DNA from: Promethearchaeota archaeon
GTDB taxonomy: Archaea > Asgardarchaeota > Lokiarchaeia > Sigyniarchaeales > SOKP01
Reading direction: 5' to 3'
DNA length: 51,058 bases
Assembly (NCBI GenBank): GCA_019057795.1
Contig: JAHLWS010000014.1
Span: 1 to 51,058 of the forward strand
Both the position numbers and the translations under genes were made by a program. Below are positions 13,618-47,049 of this stretch, piece by piece. Each line of letters starts with the position of its first letter. The stretch's first letter is position 1. The notes beneath the pieces were generated by a model, which saw only the letters and a list, made by a program, of their open reading frames with translations, made no database searches and had not been told where the DNA came from.

Positions 13618-13690
13618 TAAAAGAGTTTTTTTACAATCTATTTTAATAATAAAATATTAGCGTAATTTTTTAATTTACAGGTGAAAAGAT

Positions 13691-14554
13691 ATAAAAAGTA
13701 AGAATTTTAAAATTTTTGACGCTCATCTACATACCTATGGCACATTTCTACCTAAAAATGAAGATTTAATTAGTTATCTGGATAAATACAACATCGAAAA
13801 AGCAATTATTACTACAGTCAATAGAGCAGCAAGCTCCAAAATCTATGTTAACAAAGATAGCACTGTTGAAAATAACTCTTCTAACAATAATATCGTAAAG
13901 AGAGCGTTTGAAAACTTAAGGAAGTTAACAAAAGGTCAATTGGACCATCAAGATGTTATTAACATATCAAACAAAGATCCAGAAAGATTTTATAAATTCT
14001 TCTGGTTCAACCCAAAAATCAAGCCTGAAGATGAGGATAGCGATTACACCATCTTAGAAAATCATTTTGACTTAGGTTTTTGTGGGGTTAAGATTCATTC
14101 TGGCATTCATTTAATAAAAATTCCAGAAGACATCATAAAATTAGTTACTTTTATGCAAGATTATAACAAAAAATTTCCGTTATTCATTCACTTTACACCA
14201 AAGTTTTCTGCTTTTGGAGGGATAAGCAGCAAAGATATAGCAAAATTAGCAAAAAATTATCCAAATTTGCGTATCATTATTGGGCATGCTGCGTTGGCGA
14301 TGGAATTTGCGATAGATCTTGGATTGAGCTTAAAACAATATAAAAATGTGTTTTTTGAAACTTCGTGCTCTATACCTTATGGCATATTAAGTCTGATAAA
14401 AATAGTAGGGCATAAACGCATATTATTTGGAACAGATTCGCCAGTCACTAATCCAATAAAACTTGAAATTGATAAAATATTATGCTTACCCATTACTGAT
14501 GATCAAAAACGAGATGTTTTTTTCAACAACATTGACAGCATAATTAGAAATTAA
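13691..14554 (+). CDS. Amidohydrolase_2-family protein, probable ATA start
   Basis: The IFDAHLH metal motif (Asp codon 13718) lies upstream of the ORF-track start 13940 in the same open frame. Also GVKIH, IIIGHA, FETS and ILFGTDSP. AGGTGA lies 6 nt before ATA 13691. Confidence 0.8.
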   Translation: MKSKNFKIFDAHLHTYGTFLPKNEDLISYLDKYNIEKAIITTVNRAASSKIYVNKDSTVENNSSNNNIVKRAFENLRKLTKGQLDHQDVINISNKDPERFYKFFWFNPKIKPEDEDSDYTILENHFDLGFCGVKIHSGIHLIKIPEDIIKLVTFMQDYNKKFPLFIHFTPKFSAFGGISSKDIAKLAKNYPNLRIIIGHAALAMEFAIDLGLSLKQYKNVFFETSCSIPYGILSLIKIVGHKRILFGTDSPVTNPIKLEIDKILCLPITDDQKRDVFFNNIDSIIRN

Positions 14555-14775
14555 ACCATTATTTTTCAAAGGTTTTAAACTTTTTTAGATTATCTTTCAA
14601 ATCTTTCACTAACATTTTATCAATATTAACTAGTTAATTAATTTTGACTTTAAATTAATTGTCGAGAAAATTATTATAGATTAAGTCGATTATTTCTGTT
14701 TTAATAATAGAATATATAAACGTAGTTGTGTAATTTTTTATTATAATCTTGTAAAAATTTATTCGAGTTGATACA

Positions 14776-15321
14776 GTGAAAAATTTAGGGGATGATAATT
14801 ACTACGAAGAGAACAATAATTGGGACATCATAGAAGTTTCAAAGGTTAACGACAAAATTATTAAAAAGCTTTTAAATTATCTGAAATATGATATATCAGA
14901 AAACTTCTTTATTTCCTTTGAAAGCCTTTTAAAATTAGGAAATAAAGTTCCAGAAGCTACAATTCAAAATATTATCAAAGAATTAGACCAAACTCATAAT
15001 TTCAAAAAAGATTTATTTCATTTCATTTTAAGCTTTGTAAAAAATGGCACAGTAGAATTTCACTTATTACCTCAAATATATAGCCCAGATTTCATCGTTA
15101 GGGCTCGAGCTATAATGAAAATAAAAGAAAATAACGATACAAGATATCTAAAGTTCCTACTCCCGTTATTAGACGACCCTGACGATTCCGTAAGATGGAG
15201 CGTGATAAAATTCTTGGCTAAGCATAAAAATAATCCAATAATCTTTAATGAATTAAAAAATCACATGAATAAGGAATTAAATCCTATAATTCATAGTAAT
15301 TTGAAGCAAATATTTGAATGA
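14776..15321 (+). CDS. HEAT-repeat-containing protein
   Basis: SPDFIVRARA and LLDDPDDSVRWSV HEAT-like repeats; GTG start. Confidence 0.7.
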   Translation: MKNLGDDNYYEENNNWDIIEVSKVNDKIIKKLLNYLKYDISENFFISFESLLKLGNKVPEATIQNIIKELDQTHNFKKDLFHFILSFVKNGTVEFHLLPQIYSPDFIVRARAIMKIKENNDTRYLKFLLPLLDDPDDSVRWSVIKFLAKHKNNPIIFNELKNHMNKELNPIIHSNLKQIFE

Positions 15322-15619
15322 GAGCACAAAATTAGAGAATAAAAAATAAGAGAACATAAGAAATACAACTTAGATTTACATCTATTTTTAAATATCTTGG
15401 TGCTCTTTAACTTTTTTATTTAGAAATTCACTGCTGAATTTTGTTAATTCAAGACTTATCTCATTTAATAAAAAAGCAAACAATTAAAAAAAGCATTTTT
15501 TATATATCATTTATAATATTAAGACCCAAAATTTAAAATTTCGATATAATCTTAGTTGTATAATGTTTTATTTATCAAACTTGAGGTATTAAATAAATTT
15601 CTAAAAAAGGTGTTATGTA

Positions 15620-16150
15620 ATTCCATCATATGATTATACTTTTAAAATTCTATTGCTCGGGGACGCATCAGTCGGAAAAACATCGTTTACTAAACGATTT
15701 TGCTACAATCTCTTCAATCCCTCAGAAAGGCTAACAATTGGGGTAGACTTTCATGTTAAGACAATAGATTTACATGGTAAAAAGATAAAATTGCAAATCT
15801 GGGATGTTGGAGGGGAAGAGCGCTTCAGATTCTTATTACCCACTTATTGTCTAGGTGCTAATGCGGCATTTTTGCTTTATGATGTTACCCGATCACAGAC
15901 CTTAGACAATATTAATGAATGGACCAATATAGTTCGCCAAAAGGGGGGTCCTATTCCAATTATGCTCGTAGGCGCGAAAATCGACTTAGAAGACGCTCAA
16001 CGTGAAGTTCTTCGAGAGTACGGAATTCAAGTAGCTGAAAAAAATAACATGGCTTCTTTTGCCGAAATATCGAGTAAATTGGATCAAAATGTAGACAAAA
16101 CCTTTGAAGTTCTCACAGAGCTTACATTAGAAAAAATTGAGAATAGGTGA
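15620..16150 (+). CDS. Rab-like small GTPase, probable ATT start
   Basis: YDYTFKILLLGDASVGKT (G1), TIGVDF, KLQIWDVGGEERF, LLYDVT, GAKID and ISSK. The first beta strand lies upstream of TTG 15653. Confidence 0.9.
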   Translation: MPSYDYTFKILLLGDASVGKTSFTKRFCYNLFNPSERLTIGVDFHVKTIDLHGKKIKLQIWDVGGEERFRFLLPTYCLGANAAFLLYDVTRSQTLDNINEWTNIVRQKGGPIPIMLVGAKIDLEDAQREVLREYGIQVAEKNNMASFAEISSKLDQNVDKTFEVLTELTLEKIENR

Positions 16151-16164
16151 GGTGATTAAATAAA

Positions 16165-17127
16165 ATGGTCGAACGTGAATTTTTGTCTCTTAACTCTTTA
16201 TTTGATTCAATAGGACTTATCGAAAAAGGTATTGAAAGAGTTTATCACTTTTTATTACAACACGGGAAAATTGATAATTTAAAGGAAGTCAGTACGCAAT
16301 TTAATCTTACATTGAAAAGAGGCTATAAAATTTGTGCCGTTTTAAACGACTTAGGCTTAGTTCAAATTTACGATAGACCAATGAAAATACATTTATCTAC
16401 TCCACCTGTAGCGATTTGGCAAAGAATTATAAACGAGCGTATTGAGGAGTTATCACAGCTTTTTCAAGAAAAAAAAGAGAACGCGGAAAGCGCGTTAAAA
16501 GAATTCATAAAAAATTACGATTTTGTCGAACAAATAACTCAAGAATTCGTAGAGTTTATTAATTACGACCTAACCAACTTCGATGAAACATATCATTCGT
16601 TTCTGGCAGAAAAAGAATGTAAAATCGCCTTAGGAATAAGATATGAAAATGATTTAACTTCAGTTATAAAAAAATATGGAATTTTGAATATTCCAGAGGA
16701 TTTAAATAAATCCATGAGAGCTGGAATGATTAAAATTAAAGAAAATCTAATAAATATCAATATTCAAGTTATATTTAGTACTGAATTGATTAAGGAATTA
16801 TTATCAAGCGAAGAATTTAACCTTATTTCAAAATACATTGATTTATATGGTTTAGAATTTAAAAGTATTGATGTACGTGTCACTGACGAAGTTTTTAGTA
16901 ATTTTAGTTTAACTGATAATGAATTAATCCAACCCAGTTTTGATCCAACTAATAAATTGTTTGGATCTTTTATCTCTCGAAATGCGAATATTTACCAAAT
17001 TTTTTACGATAAATTTAATGAATTGTACGAAAAAGGTATTCACTTGGTTCAATTTTTAAAAGAACATAAAGACATTACGATTGATTCTTTTTCTGAGAGC
17101 CAATTGTTTGGTTTATGTTTGTTATAA
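16165..17127 (+). CDS. TrmB-like transcriptional regulator (N-terminal wHTH, divergent C-terminal domain)
   Basis: SIGL..KGIERVYHFLL..G, RGYKICAVLNDLGLV and DRPMK pattern; GAGGTGA SD; 14 nt downstream of the Rab stop. Confidence 0.55.
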   Translation: MVEREFLSLNSLFDSIGLIEKGIERVYHFLLQHGKIDNLKEVSTQFNLTLKRGYKICAVLNDLGLVQIYDRPMKIHLSTPPVAIWQRIINERIEELSQLFQEKKENAESALKEFIKNYDFVEQITQEFVEFINYDLTNFDETYHSFLAEKECKIALGIRYENDLTSVIKKYGILNIPEDLNKSMRAGMIKIKENLININIQVIFSTELIKELLSSEEFNLISKYIDLYGLEFKSIDVRVTDEVFSNFSLTDNELIQPSFDPTNKLFGSFISRNANIYQIFYDKFNELYEKGIHLVQFLKEHKDITIDSFSESQLFGLCLL

Positions 17128-17182
17128 AAAGACAAAAAAAAAAGAAATATAGTTAAAGTTGTTTTTACTTACTTTTAATTAT

Positions 17183-17632
17183 TTAATCGTATCTTCTATA
17201 TGTGAAAAGTAACCAGAAAAATCCCAGTACTCCAACAATAAAAGCGACAATAACGATATAGTATGGCCAGTAGGTTAAATCAAATGATGCTGGATTAGTT
17301 ATCCATCCTATTACTGCCGTTACTCCTTGTACAGCCATGATAGAAAGCACAACCAAACCAATTCCCATTGCGTATTCTTCTTCCTTAAACATACCAATTC
17401 CAGCTACAAGACACCAGAAGCCCAAGACTATTGAAATTAAACCTTGACTTCCAAAAAATGTGAGTGCTGCAGCTAAATCGGGATTAGATTCGAAATCACT
17501 CAACCATGAAGGAACTATGATACCTCCCCATGCTAAAAAGTCCATGATGCCTTTAAACAAGAAAAGTAAACCCAGTACAATCATTATAATATTTAAAAGT
17601 TCGTTCGAATCTCTCTTTTTTTTTTCGCTCAT
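17183..17632 (-). CDS. Hypothetical 4-TM membrane protein
   Basis: Four hydrophobic segments; ATG with AGGT upstream. Confidence 0.7.
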   Translation of the reverse strand: MSEKKKRDSNELLNIIMIVLGLLFLFKGIMDFLAWGGIIVPSWLSDFESNPDLAAALTFFGSQGLISIVLGFWCLVAGIGMFKEEEYAMGIGLVVLSIMAVQGVTAVIGWITNPASFDLTYWPYYIVIVAFIVGVLGFFWLLFTYRRYD

Positions 17633-17832
17633 TTTTTATCAAACCTTTTACATTTAACAAAGATTAAATGCTGAGTATGAAGATATTTTACCAATTATAT
17701 AAATTTAATTTATTTAGATAATAATTTTATAAATTAAACTCTAAATTCGTTGTTTTGAATTAATAAGGAAAATTTTTTAAATTTCTAAGATAATTTAGTG
17801 TTAACTATTGATTTTTTCAATTTCAAGTAGAA

Positions 17833-18819
17833 ATGAAAAACTTCTTATCGCCGGATAAAATTTATTCTAACGTGGAAAATGGGAAATTTAGTAAAGCTAT
17901 AGCTGCTGAGCTGTTGATCTCATTAATCGAAGGAAGCGATAACCCAACAACTCGTGCTGAATCAATTAAAATTTCTGAGAAATTGAAAATTCACGATCAA
18001 AAAATCTTTAAAATCTTACAAAATTCTCTATTATCCGACGAGAGCCCATTAGTTAGGAAATCAGCTGCGAAATTCATTGGACAAATTTTTTTAAAAAAAG
18101 GTTTAAACACGCTAATATGGGTTGTACAGCACGATAAATCTCCAATAGTTTTAGCTGCTATTTCTGATTTGAATAGCAGACTTAATAAAGCCCGATTTAA
18201 GTCGTTAAGTAAAGAAATAAATATGTATTTGGCAGAAATAGCCCTATCCGTTGGTATAGTTCAAAATGAAGCAAAATTTATATTAGATTTGGAGGCTTTA
18301 TTTGCTCAAAACGATACTGATTATGAGCTCGAGTTAAAAACTTATCAATTCTACAAAAAATTAAAAGATAATAAACTTGGAGAATCTTGGCTTACAGTAA
18401 GGAATAAACGCATAGAATCCTTGAGTTTCAATTATTATAATTGGAAATATTTGAAAGAAATCCCTAGTATGTTTGACTCAATTTCTGAATTGCAAGATCC
18501 CCTGGTTTATTTAAATTATTTAGGAAAACTTGCTCTTAAAAGCAATATAATTCTCAAAGTACCCGACTCACTAGCGCTCCTCACAAATCTAAAAAAACTG
18601 AATTTAAGCAGAAATAATATTAAGGAATTTCCGAAATCAATTTTATCACTTTCTTATCTTAAGTATTTAGACATAAGTCATAATAAAATTTCTGATATAC
18701 CTGTGGAAATTAAAAACTTAAACTCGTTGGATGTTCTGAGAATTAGCCATAATTCTTTTCGAAAAATTCCAAATTTTTTAAGAGAATTCTTGCTTACACT
18801 TCAAGATTTTAAAATTTAA
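17833..18819 (+). CDS. HEAT-repeat + leucine-rich-repeat protein
   Basis: LLSDESPLVRKSAA and HDKSPIV HEAT repeats, then LKKLNLSRNNI, LKYLDISHNKI and LDVLRISHNSF LRRs. Confidence 0.85.
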   Translation: MKNFLSPDKIYSNVENGKFSKAIAAELLISLIEGSDNPTTRAESIKISEKLKIHDQKIFKILQNSLLSDESPLVRKSAAKFIGQIFLKKGLNTLIWVVQHDKSPIVLAAISDLNSRLNKARFKSLSKEINMYLAEIALSVGIVQNEAKFILDLEALFAQNDTDYELELKTYQFYKKLKDNKLGESWLTVRNKRIESLSFNYYNWKYLKEIPSMFDSISELQDPLVYLNYLGKLALKSNIILKVPDSLALLTNLKKLNLSRNNIKEFPKSILSLSYLKYLDISHNKISDIPVEIKNLNSLDVLRISHNSFRKIPNFLREFLLTLQDFKI

Positions 18820-18906
18820 ATACTTCTATACTTTTTTCTAAGATAATTATTTAAGGAATAAAATAGAAAGTAAAATAAAAATAAATTTAGAATTATGGTG
18901 TGAAAT

Positions 18907-20619
18907 TTGGAAGAAAAGAAAAAAGTATTGAATGGTGGCGATGTTCTAATAAAATGTTTACTCGAAGAAGACATTAAATATCTGTTTGGAATTATTGGTG
19001 GACAATTCTTAAATATGTTTGATGCAATTTATAGATGGGGTAAAGAAAAGGGCATTGAAACCGTGATGTTTAGACATGAACAGGGTGCTGCCCATGCAGC
19101 TGATGCTTGGGCAAGAGTAACTAATAAACCAGGAATCTGTTTTGGAACGGTTGGTCCGGGCGCAACTCAACTCGTTCCTGGTGTTGGTGCGGCATGGAGT
19201 GATAATATGCCTATGATTGTAATTGTACCTCAAGTAAATAGTAAATTTGCAGATTCCTTCACTTTACAAGGGAACCTCGACCAAATTACTATGTTCAAAC
19301 CGATTACTAAATACCAAAAAAGTATTAGAACAATTGAAGAAATTCCTAACGCCGTCCAAAAATGTTTTAGAGAAGCTACAAGTGGTCGACCAAGACCTGT
19401 GTTGTTAGAGATTTATGAAGACGCATTTCTCAGTCAGAAAGAAGAGAGCGAAATTCCCATAATGTCTCCCGAACAGTACCGTTGTATTGAGAAACCGGCT
19501 GTAAGCAATGAATTAATACAAAAATCGTTAGATTTGTTATTAAAAGCTGAGAAGCCGCTAATTGTTTCTGGAGGTGGAGTTTCGAGGTCTGAAGGATGGG
19601 AAGAACTACAAGAATTTGCTGAATATTTGAAAATTCCCGTTATGACAAGTATTATGGGGGTTGGAACCATCTCAAGTAAGTCAGAAAGTTTTATCGGAAC
19701 AACTATAAACGGTCCGGGCTTAAAAGCAGGCCCCGAAGCTGATGTGGTTCTAGCTCTCGGTTGCAAATTCAGTTACATTATGGGACATGGGAGTGAACCA
19801 TTCTGGCGCAATTCTCAAAAGATGATACAGGTAGATATTGATCCGGGAATAATTGGAAGAGCAAAACCAATTACTTTAGGTGTGGTAAGCGATTGCAAAC
19901 AATTTTTAAAACAAATTCTTGAGAAGGCTAAAAAGACTCAAAAAGTTGAAAATAGACCTTGGTTAGATGAATTATTGGATTTGAGAAAAACACAGATGGC
20001 TGGAATGATGAAAAAAGCAACAAAAGATAAGATTCCAATATTACCTCAAAGATTAGTAAAAGATGTTTTAGAATTCATGGATGAAGATGCGGTATTCATT
20101 AACGATGGTGGGGATATAGCCTGTTATGCTATAGAGCAAATAGATTATTATAAACCAAGACCACCACTCTCCTTCTTGCAAGCTGTTGGGATGGGTCATC
20201 TCGGGACTTCTGTAGGGTACGGAATTGGAGCGAAGCTGGCAAAACCGGATAAACAAGTAATATCAATATCTGGTGATGGTAGTTTTATGATGAATATTCA
20301 AGATCTCGAAACTGCTGTAAGATTAGGTTTAAGCAATCTCATCTTTGTGATAGCAAATAATAGCGCTTGGGGAATGCTTAAATCAGGTCAAAAATTATTT
20401 GTAGATAAGCATTATCTTGATGTTGATTTACCCAATTTTGATTATGCTAAATGTGCTGAAGGATTTGGGTGCTACGGAGAGGTTGTGACTGATCCGAATG
20501 AAATTAAACCGGCACTAGAAAGAGCTAAAAATTCCGGAAAACCAGCTGTAATAGATGTTAAAACAACTTGGACAATCCCAGATGCGACAAAACTTTTAGG
20601 AAGCATGGGAATTCTATAA
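18907..20619 (+). CDS. Thiamine pyrophosphate-dependent enzyme (acetolactate synthase / 2-hydroxyacyl-CoA lyase superfamily)
   Basis: RHEQGAAHAAD, GPGAT, GRPRPV and GDGSF...NNSAWG motifs. Confidence 0.9.
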   Translation: MEEKKKVLNGGDVLIKCLLEEDIKYLFGIIGGQFLNMFDAIYRWGKEKGIETVMFRHEQGAAHAADAWARVTNKPGICFGTVGPGATQLVPGVGAAWSDNMPMIVIVPQVNSKFADSFTLQGNLDQITMFKPITKYQKSIRTIEEIPNAVQKCFREATSGRPRPVLLEIYEDAFLSQKEESEIPIMSPEQYRCIEKPAVSNELIQKSLDLLLKAEKPLIVSGGGVSRSEGWEELQEFAEYLKIPVMTSIMGVGTISSKSESFIGTTINGPGLKAGPEADVVLALGCKFSYIMGHGSEPFWRNSQKMIQVDIDPGIIGRAKPITLGVVSDCKQFLKQILEKAKKTQKVENRPWLDELLDLRKTQMAGMMKKATKDKIPILPQRLVKDVLEFMDEDAVFINDGGDIACYAIEQIDYYKPRPPLSFLQAVGMGHLGTSVGYGIGAKLAKPDKQVISISGDGSFMMNIQDLETAVRLGLSNLIFVIANNSAWGMLKSGQKLFVDKHYLDVDLPNFDYAKCAEGFGCYGEVVTDPNEIKPALERAKNSGKPAVIDVKTTWTIPDATKLLGSMGIL

Positions 20620-20689
20620 ATAATAATTTCTTAATTTTTTTTTTAATAATCTTAAACCAAAATAAAAATTTTTTAAAGGTGTTAAAATA

Positions 20690-21703
20690 ATGAGAGGAGC
20701 TTATTTTTCAGAAGTTCATAAGATAGAAATAAAGGATGATTTACCTAAACCTGAAATATCCGCAGATGAGGTTTTAATAAGAATAAAGAATTGCGGCATA
20801 TGTGGTTCTGATGTTGGATCTTACTTGACAGGAGCCATGGAATCACAACAAATAATAATAGGTCATGAATTTTCAGGAGAAATTGCCGAAATTGGTGATA
20901 AAGTCAAAAAAATGAAAATTGGGGACCGTGTTACTGCTAATCCTAATGTTCCCTGTTTAGATTGTTATTATTGCAGACACGGTTTGGAGAATATGTGTAT
21001 TTTCTATACAATTGGAGTCACTCATGATGGTGCACTAACTGAATTTGTGAAAGTTAGAGCTGATAGAATACATAAATTACCAGAATCGGTTTCTTTTGAG
21101 GAAGGGGCACTGGTCGAACCGTTAGCAATCGGAGTGCAAGCGGTTAGGAATTCTGGGTTTAAAGTTGGAGACACTACCGCTGTTTTTGGGGCTGGTTCAA
21201 TAGGATTAATGACTATCCAAGTACTTAATGCAGCAGGAGCAAGTAAAATATATGTGATCGAACCAATTGAAGCTAAACAACAATTAGCGTTAAAATTGGG
21301 AGCAGATAAAGTTTTTGGTCCAAAAATATGGGGTAAAATCATAAAACTAACAAACAAAATAGGACCAGATTATGTGTATGATGGTGTTGGTTTGCCGGAA
21401 ACAATAATAAATTCCATGCAACTGGTTAAGATGGGCGGAACAATCATCATTATTGGGATGTACCCGGAACCGTTTGAGATGAAAGGTTTTCTCCAATTTA
21501 TGACTAAAAATATTACGATGATAGGCATGTATCTTGTAGATCAAGAATCGTATAGCACGGCTCTCAGATTGATTGAGCAGAAAAAGGTTGATGTTCTATC
21601 TTTAATTACTAAACGAATAAAACTTGATGAAGTTCCTGTCGCAATTGAAGATTTATCAAAAGGATTACATGATGATATAAAGATTATGGTTGCGATAGAA
21701 TAA
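20690..21703 (+). CDS. Zn-dependent medium-chain alcohol dehydrogenase
   Basis: CGICGSD, GHEFSG, CLDCYYC..C and GAGSIG motifs. Confidence 0.9.
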   Translation: MRGAYFSEVHKIEIKDDLPKPEISADEVLIRIKNCGICGSDVGSYLTGAMESQQIIIGHEFSGEIAEIGDKVKKMKIGDRVTANPNVPCLDCYYCRHGLENMCIFYTIGVTHDGALTEFVKVRADRIHKLPESVSFEEGALVEPLAIGVQAVRNSGFKVGDTTAVFGAGSIGLMTIQVLNAAGASKIYVIEPIEAKQQLALKLGADKVFGPKIWGKIIKLTNKIGPDYVYDGVGLPETIINSMQLVKMGGTIIIIGMYPEPFEMKGFLQFMTKNITMIGMYLVDQESYSTALRLIEQKKVDVLSLITKRIKLDEVPVAIEDLSKGLHDDIKIMVAIE

Positions 21704-21840
21704 TTCTTTAATTTTATTACTATTTTTTTACTTTTTTTAACATTATAACATTTTTGGATTATGACCTAATACCCTCTTTTTATAGATTTAATTTGATGAT
21801 TTTGGTAAATATTTATAAATCCATGTAACAATAAATAAGA

Positions 21841-21861
21841 TATTCACCAAATTTGTGAATA
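21841..21861. promoter_or_regulatory. Putative operator (inverted repeat TATTCAC-N7-GTGAATA)
   Basis: Perfect 7-bp arms between a TTTATAAA TATA-like box (about 21812) and ATG 21882. Confidence 0.4.
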
Positions 21862-21881
21862 AAAATTAAGAGGTTAATCAA

Positions 21882-23615
21882 ATGGAAGGTAAAAAGAGTC
21901 CATATGATGCGAAAATATGGACGAAATCTTATGATGAACATGTTAAACCCACTTTAGAATATCCTAAAGAAAGCCTTGGTAAAATTTTTGATGATGCTAT
22001 GAAAAAATATCCCGAAAGAATCGCTTGCTACTTTATGAAACGGGATATGCCCTTCAAAGAACTGAGGGAATATACACATCGATTTGCGACATTTTTACAG
22101 AAAAATGGTTTAAAAAAAGGAGATCGCGTTGCTATAAATCTAGCTAACTGTCCTCAATATTTGGCTGCACATTTTGGAACAATTTTAGCGGGCGGAGTAG
22201 CATCGGGCTGTTCACCGCTTTTAAGCCCAACTGAAATTGCTTATCAAATAAACGATAGTGAGGCTAAATTTTTTGTTACTTTGGATGCAGTATATGAGAA
22301 AGTATTAATGAAAGTAATAGAGAAGTTGCCAAATCTTAAATGCGTGATTACGACTAATATTTCTGATTACATGGGGCTTTCAAAACCTATAGTATTTCTT
22401 GGTAAGCTACTAGGTAAAATACCAAAAGGAAAAGTTGAACCTTATTCCGGAAAATTAATTATTGATTTCAAGGATGTGATGGAAACATCCATTGACTTAC
22501 AGGATGTAGATATAGATGTGAAAAATGATCTTGCCCTACTTCAATATACCGGCGGAACCACAGGGTTACCTAAAGGCACAGAACTTACTCATGCTAACTT
22601 AATTACTAACGTAGTTCAAGTAGCAACATGGTTAGATAGAAGGGAAGCAAAGGAAGGCGAAAATAATTTATCTGCTTTTCCGCTCTTTCATTTAGCTGGT
22701 TTAGCTATGAGTATGATAACTATATATACTTCAGGAGGACAAATCTTAATTGCAGACCCTAGAGATACAGACCATATTATTGAAGAAATGATAGAAAAAA
22801 ACCCAAAAATAATGGTGAATGTACCAACCTTATTTTTATCAATTATGAACAACCCAAAATTAAAGGATGTACCCAAATCTACCTTCAATAATATAGATAT
22901 GTATGTTTCAGGGGCTGCGCCTTTTCCCGCAGAAGCAATTAGGGATTTCGAAGAATCTATGCTTGGTACTAATAAGGTTTTAGAAGTTTACGGGATGACT
23001 GAGACAAGTCCAATTCTAACTATGAATCCCCATTATGGTAAGAAGAAAATCGGAACTGTAGGTTTACCCGTACCTGACACTGAGTTGAGACTTGTAGATA
23101 TTGAAACGGGAAAACAAGTAGAACTTGGACAACCAGGAGAAATTATTTGTAAAGGTCCTCAAGTTACAAGAGGTTACTTTAACAAGCCAGAAGCAAACGC
23201 AAAAACTATTATTGATGGATGGCTTCATACTGGTGATGTTGGTGTTATGGATGAGGATGGATTCATAACGATTGTGGATCGAACAAAAGATATGTTAATC
23301 GTAAGTGGGTATAAGGTTTATAGCGTTCATGTAGAAGATGTAATGACAAAGCATCCAGATATAGAATTAGTAGCAATCATAGGTTTGAAAGATCCAGACC
23401 GCCCTGGGAGCGAAATTGTTAAAGCAGTCGTTCAACTTAAGGAAGGAATTCAGCCAACTGAAAAAGTGCAAGAAAACTTAAAAAAATATGCTGCTGAACA
23501 TCTCTCGAAATATGAAAATCCAAAACAATGGGAATTCAGAGAATCACTTCCTTTAACAGCAGTAGGAAAGGTATTAAAAAGATCTCTCCGAGAAGAAGAA
23601 ACCAAAAATGATTAA
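21882..23615 (+). CDS. Long-chain-fatty-acid--CoA ligase family
   Basis: YTGGTTGLPKG, YGMTETSP, GWLHTGD, DRTKD and PLTAVGKV motifs. Confidence 0.92.
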   Translation: MEGKKSPYDAKIWTKSYDEHVKPTLEYPKESLGKIFDDAMKKYPERIACYFMKRDMPFKELREYTHRFATFLQKNGLKKGDRVAINLANCPQYLAAHFGTILAGGVASGCSPLLSPTEIAYQINDSEAKFFVTLDAVYEKVLMKVIEKLPNLKCVITTNISDYMGLSKPIVFLGKLLGKIPKGKVEPYSGKLIIDFKDVMETSIDLQDVDIDVKNDLALLQYTGGTTGLPKGTELTHANLITNVVQVATWLDRREAKEGENNLSAFPLFHLAGLAMSMITIYTSGGQILIADPRDTDHIIEEMIEKNPKIMVNVPTLFLSIMNNPKLKDVPKSTFNNIDMYVSGAAPFPAEAIRDFEESMLGTNKVLEVYGMTETSPILTMNPHYGKKKIGTVGLPVPDTELRLVDIETGKQVELGQPGEIICKGPQVTRGYFNKPEANAKTIIDGWLHTGDVGVMDEDGFITIVDRTKDMLIVSGYKVYSVHVEDVMTKHPDIELVAIIGLKDPDRPGSEIVKAVVQLKEGIQPTEKVQENLKKYAAEHLSKYENPKQWEFRESLPLTAVGKVLKRSLREEETKND

Positions 23616-23706
23616 TTAAAACTTTTTTTTTCTATTTTTATAAAATTATATTAAGAAACTTATCAAATACTATTCATAAATATAAATTTATTTCTAATTC
23701 AAAGAG

Positions 23707-24996
23707 TTGATGTTAATGAATAATAAAAAAGGTAAAGTTCAATGTATAAATGATGAAATTCTTGAAAAACTCTCGTTAAAAACCCGTAATAAGTTTTTAA
23801 ATTACAATTTGATGAGTTTTTTAAAACCGAAGCACTTCAATTTCCTTAAACAAGCCCAAAAGTATTTTGTGAAATTTGAAAAGGATAATAACATAACCCA
23901 TAACGAAGATTTCTACGAATGGATTCCTGAAATTGGCAGAAACGGATATATTACTCGAATGCACAAATTTGATAATATTGGGTTAAACTTCGAGCCTTAC
24001 GGGATGACGACAGAATTTATGAGGGTTTTAGCCATGGATTTCTTTGATCCACAGCTAGCTATGGGCGCTGGAGCTACAGTTTTAGCAGTAAATCCATTAA
24101 TGCTCCATCACGAAAATATCGATGTTCGATTAAAAGCGCTAAAAGAATTAGTAACGGGAGAAAAAATAGGCTGTATTTGTATAACTGAACCAGAAAGAGG
24201 CTCTGATGCGGTTCATATGCTAACGACCTGTGACGAACAAGGGGATGGAAGCTTCCTTCTTAACGGTGTAAAGATATATCAAACTAATGGAACTAAAGCA
24301 GATTGGGCGGTTATTTACGCTGTAACAGAAAAGAATAATGGTAACACAATGGCCCAATTATTAGTTGACACTTCGTGGGACGGATTTGAAGCCGAACGGG
24401 TTAACATCCCTTGGACTCCAAGGATTCATATAGGTAAAGAAACTTTTACAAATATGAAAATTCCTGCTGAATATGTATTAGGTAGACCAGGTGATGGACG
24501 AACGCACTTATTTGAAGGACTTAATTTAGAAAGATTAGGAATTGTGTGTTTAAATGTTGCTGAAGCTTGGAACGCGATTACTCACGCCGTAATATATACT
24601 AATATGAGAAAACAATTTGATAAGGTAATATTGAAACATCAAGGCGTAGGATTTCCTTTGTCTGATCTCTGGGCTCAAACCACGAATATGACTTTAGCAA
24701 TCTTAAATATTTGCCAAACAATTGACGACAAAATGGAGAAGCTCGGGACGCTTCCTAAAGAGTTTAATTTAGCCTTGGGTGCTACTGCGTCACAACTTAA
24801 GTTCCTTAGTACAAAACTTTCTGAGCGGGTGGTGTATGAATGTGCCAACCTTATGGGTGGAGCAGGAGTTTGTGATAATACCCTAATGCATGATTTATTA
24901 GGAATTAGTAGAATCCAAGAAATTGGAGGCGGAACGAGACAAATACAACAGTATATTATGAGTTATGCTCTAAGACAATTGTTTCGGCTACTGTAG
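23707..24996 (+). CDS. Acyl-CoA dehydrogenase
   Basis: CITEPERGSD, LNGVKIYQTNG, RKQFDK and EIGGGT motifs. The exact start could be TTG 23707 or a nearby ATG. Confidence 0.88.
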   Translation: MMLMNNKKGKVQCINDEILEKLSLKTRNKFLNYNLMSFLKPKHFNFLKQAQKYFVKFEKDNNITHNEDFYEWIPEIGRNGYITRMHKFDNIGLNFEPYGMTTEFMRVLAMDFFDPQLAMGAGATVLAVNPLMLHHENIDVRLKALKELVTGEKIGCICITEPERGSDAVHMLTTCDEQGDGSFLLNGVKIYQTNGTKADWAVIYAVTEKNNGNTMAQLLVDTSWDGFEAERVNIPWTPRIHIGKETFTNMKIPAEYVLGRPGDGRTHLFEGLNLERLGIVCLNVAEAWNAITHAVIYTNMRKQFDKVILKHQGVGFPLSDLWAQTTNMTLAILNICQTIDDKMEKLGTLPKEFNLALGATASQLKFLSTKLSERVVYECANLMGGAGVCDNTLMHDLLGISRIQEIGGGTRQIQQYIMSYALRQLFRLL

Positions 24997-25048
24997 CATC
25001 CCATTTCTTTAAATATATTTTTTTTTTCTTAAAATCAAACTAAATTAT

Positions 25049-25288
25049 TTAAATAAGTTCTATCGGTTCGTTATGGTTATCTAAAAAGTTAAGTTTTTCG
25101 TAAAACTGTTCGCTTGGGATATATTTAGCGCTCCAAATTAAAAGGCCATCTTGCTCTGTTTCAATAAAGTCATCCTCAAATAAATCCTCTAAACACACAG
25201 TTTCTTCTTGGCTTGTTATGTCTTTCTCTATGAATTCATCAATAACATCTGTCCCAACTGAATTTGTCATAAAAACTAAAGATTCCAC
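25049..25288 (-). CDS. Small acidic hypothetical protein
   Basis: 79 aa; GTG preceded by GGAG; fills an intergenic gap. Confidence 0.6.
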   Translation of the reverse strand: MESLVFMTNSVGTDVIDEFIEKDITSQEETVCLEDLFEDDFIETEQDGLLIWSAKYIPSEQFYEKLNFLDNHNEPIELI

Positions 25289-25404
25289 GTTTTCAACTCC
25301 AATTTGAAAAATTATCTGGTAGATAATTTGGTTTTATAAAATAAGATTTCTTAAAGTATAGTAAAACCTTTACGATAATATTAAAATAATTAGAGGGAAT
25401 CAAG

Positions 25405-25590
25405 TTGCCAGAATATGAAGTTAAGGTAAAATTCTACATTTTTCCATATAGAAAATTTAAAATAAGCGCTAAAGATGAAAAGGAAGCAAGAAAAATCGCT
25501 AATGACCAAGCTCAACATATCATTGATACTTTAGATTTTAGCATAACTAATATAAAGGCAAAAGAATACCTCATGGACAAATTTCTGTGA
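25405..25590 (+). CDS. Small hypothetical protein
   Basis: 61 aa; GAGGG before TTG; beta-beta-alpha-beta-like pattern; oligo-T after the stop. Confidence 0.6.
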   Translation: MPEYEVKVKFYIFPYRKFKISAKDEKEARKIANDQAQHIIDTLDFSITNIKAKEYLMDKFL

Positions 25591-25739
25591 AAATTTTTAT
25601 TTTTCTCTTTTTTTTTCTTTTGGTTAAGATTAAACTTAGATTACTTCTAAATTCAAGTTGTAAACAATTATAAATGAAAAAATCTAACTCTATATATTTG
25701 AGTTTATTCAAATTGATCATTTTAGAATATTAAATGATT

Positions 25740-26321
25740 TTATTTATCCTTTCTATCTTTTTCTTTATTGAGATTGAAAAATGGAAACATGAATGGTATT
25801 TTAGAAGCATAATCTAAAAACTCTTCACCGTATTTGGCTTTTAATGATAAATCTTCTATTTTGGCTAAAAAGATATAAGCAATAACTTCTGCAATCCATA
25901 TATATACAATCCAAGAGCTTTTAAAAATTTCATAAGGAAAAATAATATTAACGGGAGTAGTTTCTAAACTTGTAATAGTAAACCCAAAAGTCATGATGAT
26001 TATACTAACATATTGAGGATGCCTAATATACTTATACGGTCCCTTTTTAATTAATTCTTTTCTATGGATAATTTGATAAATCAAACTATAAATAAAAAAG
26101 AAGCTTCCGAAATAAATTATATATATTCCCGGATAACCAAAGAAAGCAGAAAAATCCATTAATAAAATAGAAGGATTTTGAAAAAATGCAATAAGATAAC
26201 CAATTAATGGTAAACTCATTATACCATGCCATATGGAAGCATTTGGTATGTATTGAAAAACAGGAACAAGATATCCTATTACTTTTAGAATGCCCTCTTT
26301 TAATTTATTTAAGAGATCCAT
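25740..26321 (-). CDS. ICMT/PEMT-family membrane methyltransferase
   Basis: LIKKGPYKYIRHPQY and ED..L..KYGEEF..Y motifs; multiple TM segments. Confidence 0.8.
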   Translation of the reverse strand: MDLLNKLKEGILKVIGYLVPVFQYIPNASIWHGIMSLPLIGYLIAFFQNPSILLMDFSAFFGYPGIYIIYFGSFFFIYSLIYQIIHRKELIKKGPYKYIRHPQYVSIIIMTFGFTITSLETTPVNIIFPYEIFKSSWIVYIWIAEVIAYIFLAKIEDLSLKAKYGEEFLDYASKIPFMFPFFNLNKEKDRKDK

Positions 26322-26387
26322 ATATCTTATAAAACAATGTATAATTTAATTTCTTATTATTCAAATTAATTATTTTGAGAAAATGAA

Positions 26388-27209
26388 ATGAAAATCGAAG
26401 ATATTCAAGATATAATCTATGAAAAGGAAGAAAACGGAATCTGTACTGTTACAATTAACCAACCCAAAAGAAAAAATGCAATGTCATTTGTAACCTTTTT
26501 AGAAATTGAGACCGTGTTAGCAGATATGGAAGCTGATAAAAATGCTAAAGTTTTGATTATTACTGGCTGCGAAGAAGCTAACGCGTTTTCGTCAGGAGGT
26601 TATTTCAATATGAATATGATAACTTCAATCCCTAAAGAAATATTAGAAGAAATTGATCTAACAGACATCGCGATTAAAAGATTGTCAATGAAATTTTGGA
26701 ATTTTTCTAAACCGGTAATCGCCGCTATAAACGGATTAGCAGTAGGTGCGGGTTTTACTATGCCATTAATAGGAGCTGATTTAATTTATATGTCTGAAGA
26801 TGCTTGGATTGGTTTTTATTTTATGAGACGCGCAGTTATAGCGGAATTTAGCGCCCATTTTTTGCTTCCATTTTACATTGGTTTTCAGAAAACTAAAGAA
26901 TTACTTTATTTTGGTAAGAAGATAACTGCTCAAGAAGCCTACGAGCTTGGCCTTGTAAATAAAGTTTTACCAAAAGAAGAATTGATGCCATTTGTTAGAG
27001 AGCAAGCATTGAGACTCATTCCTCCTAAAGGTCCGTCTTTATCGATAAAATTAATGAAAAAAACTATGCACGATTATTTTAAAGACATTTTATCAAGAAC
27101 GCTAGACCTTGAAAACGAAGGTCTCAGAACTCTTTTAAAAACCCACGACTTTAGAGAATCGTTGAAAGCATTAATTCAGAAACGAGATCCAACTTTTAAA
27201 GGAAAATAG
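26388..27209 (+). CDS. Enoyl-CoA hydratase/isomerase family
   Basis: NQPKRKNA, AFSSG, KPVIAAINGLAVGAG, ITAQEAYELGLVN and KRDPTFKG motifs. Confidence 0.9.
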   Translation: MKIEDIQDIIYEKEENGICTVTINQPKRKNAMSFVTFLEIETVLADMEADKNAKVLIITGCEEANAFSSGGYFNMNMITSIPKEILEEIDLTDIAIKRLSMKFWNFSKPVIAAINGLAVGAGFTMPLIGADLIYMSEDAWIGFYFMRRAVIAEFSAHFLLPFYIGFQKTKELLYFGKKITAQEAYELGLVNKVLPKEELMPFVREQALRLIPPKGPSLSIKLMKKTMHDYFKDILSRTLDLENEGLRTLLKTHDFRESLKALIQKRDPTFKGK

Positions 27210-27249
27210 TAATTTAAGTAATAAAAATTGTTTTAACTAAGTTAGATCA

Positions 27250-28776: not shown

Positions 28777-28898
28777 TTATATATCAATAATTTAATTTTT
28801 TATAATCTCGAAATTCTTATAAAATGTGGTTGCTATTTAATATATTTATAAAGATCAATTAATAATTATTATAAAAATCGGAGATGTGAAATATAGAA

Positions 28899-30593: not shown

Positions 30594-30599
30594 AGCACT

Positions 30600-30791
30600 A
30601 CGACAGAAAAGAAACCAAATGATTACTGTTACCTCATAAGGAGTTGCCAACCATGCATAAAAACACAAATATCAAAAAAGCACTTACCTTATTACGAATG
30701 CGAATTATGTATATGGCGTATTCGTTCTGATAACCCACGTCATTTAAAAAGTCTTCAAAGAATTTATGAAAAATATAATCCTAACATCTAA
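30600..30791 (+). CDS. Small Cys-rich putative Zn-binding protein, possible ACG start
   Basis: 63-codon frame (T/M)TEKKPNDYCYLIRSCQPC...YECELCIWR...NPNI* with two CxxC motifs and no in-frame ATG/GTG/TTG. Confidence 0.5.
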   Translation, partial: TTEKKPNDYCYLIRSCQPCIKTQISKKHLPYYECELCIWRIRSDNPRHLKSLQRIYEKYNPNI

Positions 30792-39372: not shown

Positions 39373-39580
39373 TATTTTTCACTTTTTTTTAAAATTATTC
39401 TAAAAACAATGGTATTATAATATTTTACATACTAGTATAAAAGGTTTTCTTCAAAAATTACCGGTAAAAATATAATTTTACCATTAATAAAAATCATGAA
39501 AAAAAATAAATAGTAATTAAATTTTGCTTTAGATAACTGTTTAAATGTAATGAATAACAAAAATATCGGGTGTCAAATAG

Positions 39581-39862
39581 ATTTACTATCGAGGATACAT
39601 TTTGGTTCGCTTAAAGATTATCGGAACTCAATGGAAGATTGTAGAGAAATTGAAGGGTTTGAAACCAGAAGAAGATCAAGATTGGAAGATTACTTATACA
39701 TCCCCTACTTATGGTGGTTGGGATTTAATTGTAGAATGCATTTTTAATAACTTAGAAGATTTGGATAAAATCGTGTCCTTCTGTCGAACTGATGAAGATT
39801 TAAAAGAGTGGATCGATGCCACAACAACTCTGATCAGCACAAAAAGAAATTTTGAAGAATAG
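39581..39862 (+). CDS. Stand-alone Lrp/AsnC C-terminal (RAM-like) domain protein, probable ATT start
   Basis: RGYILVRL...TYGGWDLIVE..NNLEDLDKIV...TTTLIS. The first beta strand begins upstream of TTG 39602. GGGTG lies 8 nt before ATT 39581, which directly follows an in-frame TAG. Confidence 0.65.
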   Translation: MYYRGYILVRLKIIGTQWKIVEKLKGLKPEEDQDWKITYTSPTYGGWDLIVECIFNNLEDLDKIVSFCRTDEDLKEWIDATTTLISTKRNFEE

Positions 39863-39885: not shown

Positions 39886-40884
39886 TCAAATCAAATTATT
39901 AATAATAATCTCGGAAATATCTGACGAGTATTCACCTGTTCTCCTGATGCTTTCGATTATAAACCCTATTTCAACAAGATACTCTGAATTAGGATTAATT
40001 TTAATAAAATTACATACTTTTGTTAATTTTTTAGTGGATTCGATGGTTTCATTTGCTAATGTTAAACTATTTTGAAGCCAGGCGTCTAAACTCATGTTTA
40101 ATAAGTCTAAAGAAATCCTACTTGCATTCATAATGTTTTTGTACAATTCTTTATCGATTTTTTGGTAATCTATAAGTAAAACATTTCGCGCGATTTTTAC
40201 GGCGTGGTCCGCAATTCTCTCTAGAAATCGGCCTATAAATTTATAATTACTGGCATCTTCTAATGTAATACCTAATTTTTGGCACAATATAATATCTCGT
40301 AATACAATGTGAGCCTGGCGCTCGACTAGCCAATTCAATCGATCAATTTCATCATCACTTTCAATCACTTTTTCCGCTAGCCTTTTATCCTCCGTTTCCA
40401 AGGCTTTAAGTGCGTCCTCGTGCATACCATTAGCTAGGATATACATCCTCCTGATCGTTTTTTCAAATGGCATTTCTTTTGGGTCGAGTAAATCTTTGAT
40501 TATAATATTGTTATCTGTTTCCTCTATTATTTCAGTCCCTATTGTAATTTTTCTGAAATTTATTACAGTATCTCTTATTTTTGACTCAATCTTTTTACTA
40601 GATTTCACTTCTATAATGTTATACCCCATAATATAAGCTCCAACTAATAATCGAAACAAGAAATCAGAGTTTTTAATCTCGTCAATGTCGAACTTCTTCT
40701 CTCTTATAAGTTTTTCTGAACTTATGTAAGGAGTAATAAGTAAATTACCATCTGGTTGTGACAGGATTCCAATAGTATCTTTAACCTGAATTCCGTGCTT
40801 ATCAATCCATTCTCTTGGTAGACTAATGATATAAGTAGACCCACCCGTTTTTTGTACTTTTCTTGTTTCAATATTGAAAGACAT
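39886..40884 (-). CDS. Archaeal AbrB-PhoU phosphate uptake regulator
   Basis: ETRKVQKTGGSTYIISLPREW, LVGAYIMGY, DDEIDRL and LERIADHA motifs. ATG 40884, or GTG 40896. Confidence 0.9.
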   Translation of the reverse strand: MSFNIETRKVQKTGGSTYIISLPREWIDKHGIQVKDTIGILSQPDGNLLITPYISSEKLIREKKFDIDEIKNSDFLFRLLVGAYIMGYNIIEVKSSKKIESKIRDTVINFRKITIGTEIIEETDNNIIIKDLLDPKEMPFEKTIRRMYILANGMHEDALKALETEDKRLAEKVIESDDEIDRLNWLVERQAHIVLRDIILCQKLGITLEDASNYKFIGRFLERIADHAVKIARNVLLIDYQKIDKELYKNIMNASRISLDLLNMSLDAWLQNSLTLANETIESTKKLTKVCNFIKINPNSEYLVEIGFIIESIRRTGEYSSDISEIIINNLI

Positions 40885-41097
40885 AACTTTTTCCACTAAA
40901 TTGTGTGTTTTATAAATATTATATTTATATAGAAAATAAATATTTTTTATATATTCTATATATTTTTCCTCAAGAATTTATAGATTTGTTTTAATTTATT
41001 TTATATTATACATATTTCAGGCACCAATCTTTAGAGTATATTGAAGAAATGGGTAATGTGAAGATTTAATAATATCTAACAACTTAAAGGGATTAAG

Positions 41098-45234: not shown

Positions 45235-45392
45235 TTTTAAAATTTTATTAAATTTTAATTTTCATTTATATTTTGAATTGTTTAATATGTAGGAAATATT
45301 GATTTTTAAAATATTTCATAAAATAAAGATAATAAAAATAGAGTGTCTTTCTTCACACCCTATCTTAAAAAAGGATCAAAATAAAATGGATT

Positions 45393-46265
45393 TTAATATT
45401 CAGACATATACTTATAAAAATGCTTAAAGAATCCTTTAGTTTTGTGAGTAATAAAATTTCCTTTAATTTCTGGGTCGTTAATTACATTTTGAATATTGTA
45501 GCCCTCTTTTATTACAAAAAGATTCATATATTTATTTGATATTGCCTTTTCCGGGCAAATGTAAACACAACGCATACAAAAAGTGCACTTATTTCCAAAT
45601 ATTATTTTCCCATTACTTACAGATATGTTTCTTGTAGGACATTCTTTTATACATTTACCACATAAATTACACGAGTCTGTTGTTATTAAATATTTACCAA
45701 AATAAGACGCACCATTACTCTCTGCTTTATTGAACATATAAGTTCCAATTTTTAGCCATAAACTATTTTTTTGAAGATTTACCTTTCCCAAAAGTATTTC
45801 TTTGGTTCCCCTTTTAACCTTCTTAACAGCTACTTCGTATAACTGTTTAATTAGAGAATCATCGTATTTAAGCATTACATTAGCAGGCATAACAATCAAG
45901 TTTTCATGAAATACTTTATACCCTTTTTTGTTAAGATGTTTTCTAACCAAGCTTGTAGACCCCCCAGAACAAAGCGGATCTCCTGCTGTTTTGAAAGTAA
46001 ATGTTTTTTTATCATCTACATTTGGCAACCTGTCAAGAAAATCAAAAAATATTTTTGGAGCGCTAAACGCATGTACAGGGTGTCCAAAACCTAGAAGGTC
46101 GTAATCATCTATAGAAAGCGCAAGTTTTTTATTTAAAATATCCTCAATAGGTATAAGCTTTGTACTGAACTCTTTCCTTTTGAACTTGTCTGCAAACAAA
46201 TTCGCAACTAATTTAGTGTTTCCCGTCCCAGAAAAATAGAAAATTCCTATATTTTGAATATTCAT
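45393..46265 (-). CDS. EFR1-type flavodoxin-ferredoxin fusion
   Basis: YFSGTGNT, MPAN, CNLCGKCIKECP and CTFCMRCVYICP motifs. Confidence 0.85.
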   Translation of the reverse strand: MNIQNIGIFYFSGTGNTKLVANLFADKFKRKEFSTKLIPIEDILNKKLALSIDDYDLLGFGHPVHAFSAPKIFFDFLDRLPNVDDKKTFTFKTAGDPLCSGGSTSLVRKHLNKKGYKVFHENLIVMPANVMLKYDDSLIKQLYEVAVKKVKRGTKEILLGKVNLQKNSLWLKIGTYMFNKAESNGASYFGKYLITTDSCNLCGKCIKECPTRNISVSNGKIIFGNKCTFCMRCVYICPEKAISNKYMNLFVIKEGYNIQNVINDPEIKGNFITHKTKGFFKHFYKYMSEY

Positions 46266-46482
46266 TTTTATTTCATTCCATAAATTAAATCTCTAGTTAT
46301 TCAATTAAAGTTAATGAACTATTCTTTAATATTCTTTAAACTTGCGATTCATTTATGAAATAATTTTAATCGTTAAAAATTGGACTCAATATTTTTTAAG
46401 AATGTTATGTCATTTTATATTTTAGGAATCTCTTATTAAAAGAGAATAAATCATAAAAAAAAAATAAAAAGAGTGAAAAAAA

Positions 46483-47049
46483 CTGTCAAGTGAAAAATAT
46501 AAACATCGTTATTATTCTAAAAAGAAATACGAAGCTGCAATTACCATTTTCGGAACTGGTCTTGTATTTTTATTCGTTGCGATTATGTCGTTAGTTTTTA
46601 GAGCGATTAATTTTGACCTTATCGGCTTATCAAGTTGGGGATTTTGGTTGTTCATTCCTGCTTTTTTCATTATGATTGGTGGGTTTCAACAGATTTATAC
46701 TAACATTCAATTCAAAAAAGCAGTAAGAGTTGCAATATTAGATCGTGGTAATCAGGGCGCTCATAAGTTAGAAGATATAGCGCTTGAAGTCGGGATTAAA
46801 CCTAAAGATGTGCTTCGGGTTCTTATCGATTTGCGTCAAAAAGGAGTTGTTAGTTATCGTTTTAATTCTGAAACTGGCGAGATTATCCTTGGAGAGAACA
46901 TCGTTTACGCTCCCGTTGATAATTACATAGCTCCACCTAAAAATCTTGCAGAACCCTTATCAACAGAAGGAAAGAGTTATTGTGTTTATTGTGGCCAGCA
47001 ACTTCGAGAAGGTTCCTTATTTTGCGAAAACTGCGGGTCTAAAATTTAA
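46483..47049 (+). CDS. Membrane protein with winged-helix and C-terminal zinc ribbon, probable CTG start
   Basis: The frame is open 34 codons upstream of ATG 46585, adding most of a TM helix. GAGTGA lies 6 nt before the CTG. LEDIALEVGI..DVLRVL and CVYCG..CENCG motifs. Confidence 0.7.
   Translation: MSSEKYKHRYYSKKKYEAAITIFGTGLVFLFVAIMSLVFRAINFDLIGLSSWGFWLFIPAFFIMIGGFQQIYTNIQFKKAVRVAILDRGNQGAHKLEDIALEVGIKPKDVLRVLIDLRQKGVVSYRFNSETGEIILGENIVYAPVDNYIAPPKNLAEPLSTEGKSYCVYCGQQLREGSLFCENCGSKI

Follow-up and report, generated by a model that had tools for sequence, protein, structure and literature searches.

Near-cognate codons very probably serve as genuine translation starts directed by Shine-Dalgarno (SD) motifs in a genus of Promethearchaeota, where they appear to have been tolerated over a long time, as judged from five genes of contig JAHLWS010000014.1 and from the genome to which it belongs. 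The window analysed here is this entire contig (C14; 51,058 nt) of a 4.95 Mb metagenome-assembled genome (MAG; GCA_019057795.1) with 31% GC and an estimated contamination of 7.5%, whose nearest named relatives were Promethearchaeota/Promethearchaeia (Loki-type Asgard) sediment genomes such as Loki_b31, ABR02 and HM4_B22 (= G005). The window contained 43 open reading frames (ORFs) with 100 codons or more and further, smaller ones. In five of its genes, the candidate start was ATA, ATT (twice), ACG or CTG, and the support for these codons as starts came from sequence, homology, statistics and assembly.

The 3' end of the 16S rRNA was GGATCACCTCCT, and the SD consensus is therefore GGAGGTGATC. 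The near-cognate codons considered were ATT, ATA and ATC (together ATH), CTG and ACG, with ATG, GTG and TTG as the canonical starts. Each protein was searched in 30 relatives (18 of the same genus and 12 from three other families), and the 5' ends of the orthologous genes were read. In this alignment, all five near-cognate codons lay at the homologous start slot, which was occupied by a canonical codon in orthologues, and all five reading frames were intact, without decay. The aligned SD spacing was 6 for genes 1, 2 and 5 and 7 for gene 4, with a canonical peak at 6-7. The SD motifs, spacings and bounding stops of the five sites read as given in a preliminary description of the window, and the gene chosen there for comparison (AGGTG-8-ATG at 20690) was also correct. 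Its figure of about 5 of 50 genes was a fair one, given the ORF content of the window.

Near-cognate starts in the window

Gene 1 encoded an amidohydrolase (coordinates of all features are given in Table 1). Its ATA followed AGGTGA after 6 nt, and the in-frame stop was the TGA at 13682-13684, within the SD itself. The first canonical codon, TTG 13940, was found 83 codons downstream of the ATA, and the extension between the two included the motif FDAHLH, which was conserved in 20 of 20 orthologues. The start slot was ATA in this genome and in G009, G005, G012 and also G018 (there after GGTG), and ATG in 11 others. At the 5' ends of the amidohydrolase genes of G015 and G014, no canonical codon and no codon near-cognate to AUG was present ahead of FDAHLH; a possible start for these two proteins is the conserved ATT in K-I-F-D, unless NUA codons are tolerated there.

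Gene 2 encoded a Rab/Ras-family small GTPase, with an upstream in-frame stop at TAA 15602. Position 1 of the Pfam Ras profile corresponded to residue 14 of the stop-to-stop frame (the K of FKILLLGD), and TTG 15653 was located three positions inside the profile, where a start would drop most of β-1. Eight genus members had ATT at the orthologous slot; ATA was found there in two orthologues, ATG in five and GTG in one. The arrangement AGGTG-N7-ATT was kept in G005, G018, G013, G007, G010 and G017, with AGGTG-N6-ATT in G012. In four of these orthologues (G012, G007, G010 and G017), an in-frame TAA or TGA occurred within the spacer, one or two codons before the ATT, and no coding sequence is therefore possible further upstream; in two of the four, the P-loop was not preceded by any canonical codon.

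Gene 4 encoded a small protein with a weak Pfam match to the Lrp/AsnC ligand-binding domain (E 0.061), and its ATT was the first codon following TAG 39578. A GGTG core 8 nt before ATT or ATC was kept in most orthologues of the genus, one member of which (G007) had ATG exactly at the ATT slot. The motif YYRGYIL, encoded upstream of TTG 39602, was conserved in 22 of 22 homologues, including those of other families, in which ATG stood a few residues ahead of the motif. TTG 39602 was missing at its slot in about 9 of the same 22 homologues. This codon, with GAGGA 6 nt upstream, was considered as the start of gene 4 and rejected, as GAGGA encodes the conserved Arg-Gly of YYRGY and the slot is often TTA or CTC in orthologues.

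Gene 5 encoded a membrane protein with a C-terminal zinc ribbon. The in-frame stop was TGA 46474, within the imperfect SD GAGTGA, and ATG 46585 fell within the first hydrophobic segment. Among about 45 Promethearchaeota homologues, the start slot was mostly ATG or TTG, with GTG in two or three and ATT (AAGGTGA-N6) in one. CTG occupied it in the clade of this genome (this genome, G005/HM4_B22, Loki_b31 and ABR02), within which the N-terminal extension showed synonymous changes only, and the segment RYYSKKKYEAA was conserved.

Gene 3, a small CxxC...CxxC protein gene, had the least secure of the five starts. Its ORF of 64 codons possessed no canonical start codon anywhere in frame, and its protein family had no Pfam match. 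The ACG was located 6 nt past the pyrG stop (TAA 30591) and in frame with pyrG. The order of pyrG stop, 6 nt and in-frame start of a small zinc-ribbon ORF was common to this genome, G005 and G009, and its constancy suggests termination-reinitiation coupling; if translated, gene 3 would most likely be so through re-initiation after the pyrG stop. The copy in the nearest relative (G005; 84% identical) had ATG at the ACG slot, as did distant homologues in family f4. Strains in three other samples (runs X3, X5 and X7) carried C>T at 30601, which restores ATG, and the source-run contig kept ACG. No SD precedes the ACG, which has arisen from ATG in a strain-specific manner.

For this gene alone, it is quite possible, if a little short of probable, that the ACG is no start at all, either because the change from ATG silenced the gene in this strain or because the peptide is made by read-through of the pyrG stop. 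The ATG found in the nearest relative and in the strains of the three other samples would fit such a loss, as would the missing SD, the position of the ORF in frame with pyrG two codons after the TAA and the weak enrichment of ACG across the genome (4 observed against 1.0 expected). On the other side, the 63-codon frame was intact and as similar to the G005 copy as stated above, and the 6-nt arrangement after pyrG, kept in G005 and G009, fits coupled re-initiation at the ACG.

Two further observations concern this locus. The strains of the three other sediment or cold-seep samples differed from the window at 30601, 30619, 30635 and 30644-30645, where they resembled the G005 version. Moreover, gene 3 homologues were frameshifted in G016 and in G009 (in the latter near an A-run), as assembly errors or pseudogenes.

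Genome-wide enrichment and domain boundaries

For the genome-wide test, 4124 stop-to-stop ORFs that did not overlap and spanned 100 codons or more were taken. The count of codons left open ahead of the first ATG, GTG or TTG was heavy-tailed, with 82 ORFs having at least 50 of them compared to about 7 under geometric decay. The in-frame codons that precede the first canonical start were then scored for a 5-mer SD at the aligned spacing of 6-7. At this spacing, ATT was observed 47 times against 10.0 expected (P 2e-17), ATA 35 times against 7.9 (P 1e-12) and ATC 9 times against 1.9 (P 1e-4), with smaller numbers for CTG (4 against 0.9) and ACG. The pattern described from the window therefore goes beyond chance across the genome.

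The peak of ATH codons at spacing 6-7 coincided with that of canonical starts. At spacing 6, there were 44 ATH codons (from a pool of 2738) versus 13 AT-control codons (from a pool of 6429), and in the same set no peak at 6-7 was detected for AT-only control codons or for out-of-frame ATH. Expressed as SD-led excess, the counts were 171 for ATG, 39 for TTG, 37 for ATT, 27 for ATA, 15 for GTG, 7 for ATC and 3 each for CTG and ACG, so that ATT and ATA each approached TTG and exceeded GTG. TTG starts were common, as had been remarked earlier (39 of about 225 SD-led canonical starts). When SD-led codons were counted across codons 1-80 of each ORF, the result was uninformative for ATH, as internal Ile codons swamp the signal; it did indicate that the canonical counts were not too low.

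ORFs were also selected without regard to the SD, as those with at least 23 open, coding-like codons before the canonical start. An SD of at least 5 nt preceded a near-cognate codon in 24% of these ORFs versus 5% of non-coding-like ORFs, and was found ahead of 16% of ATG starts; near-cognate starts are therefore at least as SD-dependent as ATG starts. Based on a codon-usage mixture model, about 116 ORFs possessed at least 20 coding-like codons ahead of any canonical start. Extrapolation from this number suggests about 250 ORFs with a near-cognate start (about 6%), a rough estimate in which frameshifted genes may be included. The rate of 10% taken from the window stands as the share of that contig and does not carry over to the genome as an average, which is probably lower and near this estimate. 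Overall, a few percent of all genes in this genome probably begin at near-cognate codons.

The comparison of SD-led near-cognate codons with Pfam matches, which the preliminary description had put forward, covered 20 further candidates. For 14 of them, the profile match set in ahead of any canonical codon, at a distance of 2-42 residues past the proposed near-cognate start. These included matches to DAO, DNA_methylase and GD_AH_second (Table 1), and the candidates with AFOR_N, IF-2B, Gtr1_RagA and Fer4 likewise had their match upstream of the first canonical codon. Pfam was indecisive in the other six, which had no domain or one that starts only past the first canonical codon.

In a complete genome of another family (G026, family f2; 1.2 Mb sampled), nine ATH codons stood at SD spacing 6-7 where 3.1 were expected, and two or three of these cases were convincing. 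Apparent ATH starts there included those of an FtsX-like permease and of a 174-codon ORF (Table 1). The habit is therefore present in this genome too, and appears to be roughly threefold rarer.

Ribosomal protein S4, aIF1 and the initiator tRNA

Near-cognate starts extended to essential genes. At the slot of the first Met of ribosomal protein S4 (rpS4), nine genus members carried ATC and one ATA; the six remaining members, like each of the 13 genomes from other families, had ATG there. The gene for aIF1 had an ATT start, the fourth codon after an in-frame TGA, and its first GTG occurred only past the zinc knuckle; the alignment with Methanocaldococcus jannaschii aIF1 began 4 residues after the ATT. 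This ATT, together with its leader (AAAGGTTGTGAA), was kept in 13 of 13 genus orthologues, and the start was ATA in the sister genus, TTG in two genera and ATG in more distant ones. Positions -30 to -1 of the aIF1 gene showed 87% identity across the genus, compared to 55-60% at positions -60 to -31 and at third codon positions, taken as neutral-like sites.

aIF1 has been reported to discriminate against non-AUG codons (PMC6237735), and Sulfolobus work, as cited in that paper, has ascribed the same discrimination to it. In the protein encoded here, loop 1 (RKWGR, compared to RYGK/RFGK of characterised aIF1) showed conservative differences, with no change of a fidelity residue identified. The initiator tRNA, located by pattern search, had a normal CAU anticodon, and its gene carried a 29-nt intron in the T loop. 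The inspection of the initiator tRNA and aIF1 that had been suggested thus showed no obvious fidelity-residue change.

It is improbable that the ATH starts are explained by a changed decoding apparatus, be it a second initiator or an initiator tRNA whose anticodon is altered. ATT, ATA and ATC were used at similar rates per available codon, a pattern that a change in the first anticodon base could yield. The sole initiator-like tRNA detected nevertheless combined CAU with the standard archaeal identity elements. A pattern search for tRNAs that combine a GGG/CCC anticodon stem with any NAU anticodon except CAU returned only two matches, neither of them tRNA-like, in a genome where tRNA detection was incomplete (27 Rfam matches) and where base modifications are invisible in the DNA. 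ARAGORN recovered 14 tRNAs genome-wide (the calls of its intron mode were implausible), and many tRNAs of this genome are probably intron-rich or unassembled.

In the mechanism proposed for SD-directed near-cognate starts, the anti-SD end of the 16S rRNA would pair with the GGTG-type motif, and this pairing would set the near-cognate codon, 6-8 nt downstream, in the P site of the 30S subunit. The ordinary initiator Met-tRNA (CAU) would there be accepted on AUU, AUA and AUC, with a third-base mismatch, and less often on CUG and ACG. In this genus, near-cognate codons stand in for ATG at homologous positions, are kept from species to species and are also found in essential genes, rpS4 among them. 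The initiator tRNA, and hence Met, most likely starts the proteins concerned. A lowered stringency of aIF1 may permit such starts, and the ATT start of aIF1 may be linked to the use of ATH across the genome.

In bacteria, infC (encoding IF3) is autoregulated through its own AUU start, and in eukaryotes eIF1 is autoregulated through a poor start context. The aIF1 gene resembles both in that it encodes a proofreading factor and lacks a canonical start, with the ATT conserved behind a strongly conserved leader in all genus orthologues; unlike the product of infC, aIF1 is homologous to eIF1 and not to IF3. By analogy, the conserved AUU start of aIF1 may form an IF3-like feedback loop. It is conceivable, although rather doubtful, that start stringency is low by design in this genus, with aIF1 made from a conserved AUU behind an invariant leader in a loop like those of IF3 and eIF1 that would keep its level such that SD-positioned AUU, AUA and AUC serve as regular starts and make up about a fifth of strongly SD-led starts.

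Table 1. Near-cognate start sites, the associated genes and motifs, and further candidates. Positions are those of the window unless a genome and contig are named.
Feature	Position	Strand	Start or match	Remarks
SD of gene 1, AGGTGA	13679..13684	+		Complementary to 16S 3' end; AGGTGA retained in orthologues
Gene 1, Amidohydro_2-family amidohydrolase	13691..14554	+	ATA 13691	Pfam PF04909, E 1.3e-13
SD of gene 2, AGGTG	15608..15612	+		7 nt ahead of ATT
Gene 2, Rab/Ras-family small GTPase	15620..16150	+	ATT 15620	Pfam Ras, E 4.8e-44
Gene 3, 63-residue CxxC...CxxC small protein	30600..30791	+	ACG 30600	No SD; weakest of the five
SD-like motif of gene 4, GGGTG	39568..39572	+		8 nt ahead of ATT
Gene 4, 93-residue protein	39581..39862	+	ATT 39581	Weak Lrp/AsnC ligand-binding (RAM-like) match
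Imperfect SD of gene 5, GAGTGA	46471..46476	+		6 nt ahead of CTG; matches SD consensus in the 4-mer GTGA only
Gene 5, membrane protein, C-terminal zinc ribbon	46483..47049	+	CTG 46483	Pfam Zn_Ribbon_1
Ribosomal protein S4	G000:C5:39799-40299	-	ATC	AAGGTGA-N6-ATC GGA GAC CCA (IGDPRR)
aIF1 (SUI1)	G000:C70:199626-199979	-	ATT	No ATG/GTG/TTG before zinc knuckle
Initiator tRNA	G000:C70:174351-174457	+		CAU anticodon, A1:U72, GGG/CCC stem; pattern search
DAO candidate			Pfam, residues 5-358 matched	First canonical codon at residue 100
DNA_methylase candidate			Pfam, residues 3-370 matched	First canonical codon at residue 118
GD_AH_second candidate			Pfam, residues 7-135 matched	First canonical codon at residue 81
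FtsX-like permease	G026:C1:198102	+	ATA	GAGGTGA-N6-ATA, IIKYALRNIFRQ...; apparent ATH start
174-codon ORF	G026:C1:926345	+	ATT	AAGGTGA-N6-ATT; first canonical codon 91 codons later; apparent ATH start

Weighing of the evidence

There is little to recommend the explanation that translation starts at the first downstream ATG, GTG or TTG and that the upstream frames are untranslated leaders left open by chance. Canonical codons do exist at TTG 13940, TTG 15653, TTG 39602 and ATG 46585, and CGAGGA ahead of TTG 39602 resembles an SD. However, the extensions upstream of these codons carry conserved protein sequence (FDAHLH, Ras β-1, YYRGYIL and RYYSKKKYEAA), TTG 39602 and TTG 15653 are themselves unconserved, with no canonical codon there in some orthologues, and the gene 5 extension has accumulated only synonymous changes in its own clade. 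Moreover, a stretch of 83 open codons such as that of gene 1 is very unlikely by chance at the intergenic stop frequency of about 8.5% per codon.

The assembly was verified with an independently assembled Logan contig of the likely source run over the stretch 13500-31000, which holds the sites of genes 1-3. The Logan contig showed 0 differences and 0 gaps over these 17.5 kb at a depth of 18, and sites 1-3 are therefore real sequence and not assembly errors. That the near-cognate codons are assembly or sequencing errors, or that the genes are decaying pseudogenes, is the least credible explanation of all: although the genome is metagenome-assembled with the contamination given above, a gene 3 homologue is frameshifted at poly-A runs in two relatives and ACG 30600 is ATG in other strains, five of five frames are intact, the same ATT, ATA, ATC or CTG is seen again in genomes of different species that were assembled independently, and the essential genes rpS4 and aIF1 are affected genus-wide.

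Several points weigh against SD-directed near-cognate initiation as the explanation of all these cases. The support is of the sequence level and comes from assembled contigs. ACG 30600, strain-specific and without an SD, could reflect a recent loss of the start codon. Gene 5 has an imperfect SD and a downstream ATG. The amidohydrolase slot is TTA in G015 and GTA in G014, in each case 6 nt after AAGGTGA, and the model leaves these codons unexplained. In addition, the loop 1 differences of aIF1 are conservative, and the estimated genome-wide rate depends on a rough codon-usage mixture model that may count frameshifted genes.

Taken as a whole, four independent lines (the orthologue slots, the genome-wide enrichment, the Pfam boundaries and the independent assembly) support the earlier proposal that start selection is systematically permissive and that gene callers overlook such starts. 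The comparison of assemblies over 13500-31000 brought up no error, the orthologues were not uniformly canonical and the genes showed no decay.

Other candidates in the window were not retained. An AbrB/PhoU-like gene (40884-40977, minus strand), listed from GTG 40896, was considered as a sixth near-cognate case with ATA 40959 and rejected, as ATG 40884 (MSFNIETRKVQKTGG...) is almost certainly its true start. This ATG was preceded by an AT-rich, promoter-like stretch, and the open upstream frame of 27 codons was non-coding. For ATT 47440, the sole SD match was a TGATC 5-mer, and a start at ATG 47470 is more likely.

Comparison with known systems and implications

In Escherichia coli, infC and pcnB start at AUU, and NCBI translation table 11 lists ATT, ATC, ATA and CTG as alternative initiators; near-cognate starts in bacteria are rare exceptions. 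The starts proposed here resemble the bacterial ones in that AUU, AUA, AUC and CUG would be SD-directed, read by a normal initiator tRNA, placed at the head of ordinary proteins and missed by gene callers limited to ATG, GTG and TTG. They differ in their frequency, with SD-led starts at ATT and at ATA each about as numerous as those at TTG and outnumbering those at GTG, in their retention across species in essential genes, and in their host, an archaeon with the eukaryote-type factors aIF1, aIF1A and aIF2 in place of IF3.

Among Asgard archaea, a "rare ATT start codon" has been described for the tubulin AtubA of Kariarchaeaceae, whose first β-strand was restored by its authors through an upstream ATT at a plausible distance from the ribosome binding site (PMC13394414). 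That case was a one-off rarity in one gene, whereas the starts described here form a habit across the genome and the lineage, with statistical and orthologue support. In Haloferax volcanii, ribosome profiling placed about 30% of putative alternative initiation sites at near-cognate codons, which the authors set aside as possible false positives (PMC7261190). Those sites were mostly alternative ones, whereas here the near-cognate codon is the sole possible start of a conserved protein. A literature search returned no genome-wide description of near-cognate starts for Asgard archaea, and no report of this frequency in an archaeal lineage.

Gene callers limited to ATG, GTG and TTG would truncate or miss a few percent of the proteins in Loki-type Asgard genomes, and what is lost at the N-terminus includes P-loops, Rossmann folds, metal sites and signal peptides. 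Such errors are passed on to comparisons of eukaryotic signature proteins, to structure prediction and to expression constructs, as in the case of AtubA, where the start had to be corrected by hand (PMC13394414). More broadly, AUH starts would be about as frequent as UUG or GUG starts in an archaeal lineage that has eukaryote-type initiation factors. If the feedback loop of aIF1 proves true, it would be the first of its kind in archaea and would be found in the closest lineage to the eukaryotes, which also autoregulate eIF1 by start-site quality. The AUU start of aIF1 makes the evolution of start-codon fidelity control, from IF3 to aIF1 and eIF1, testable in cultured relatives.

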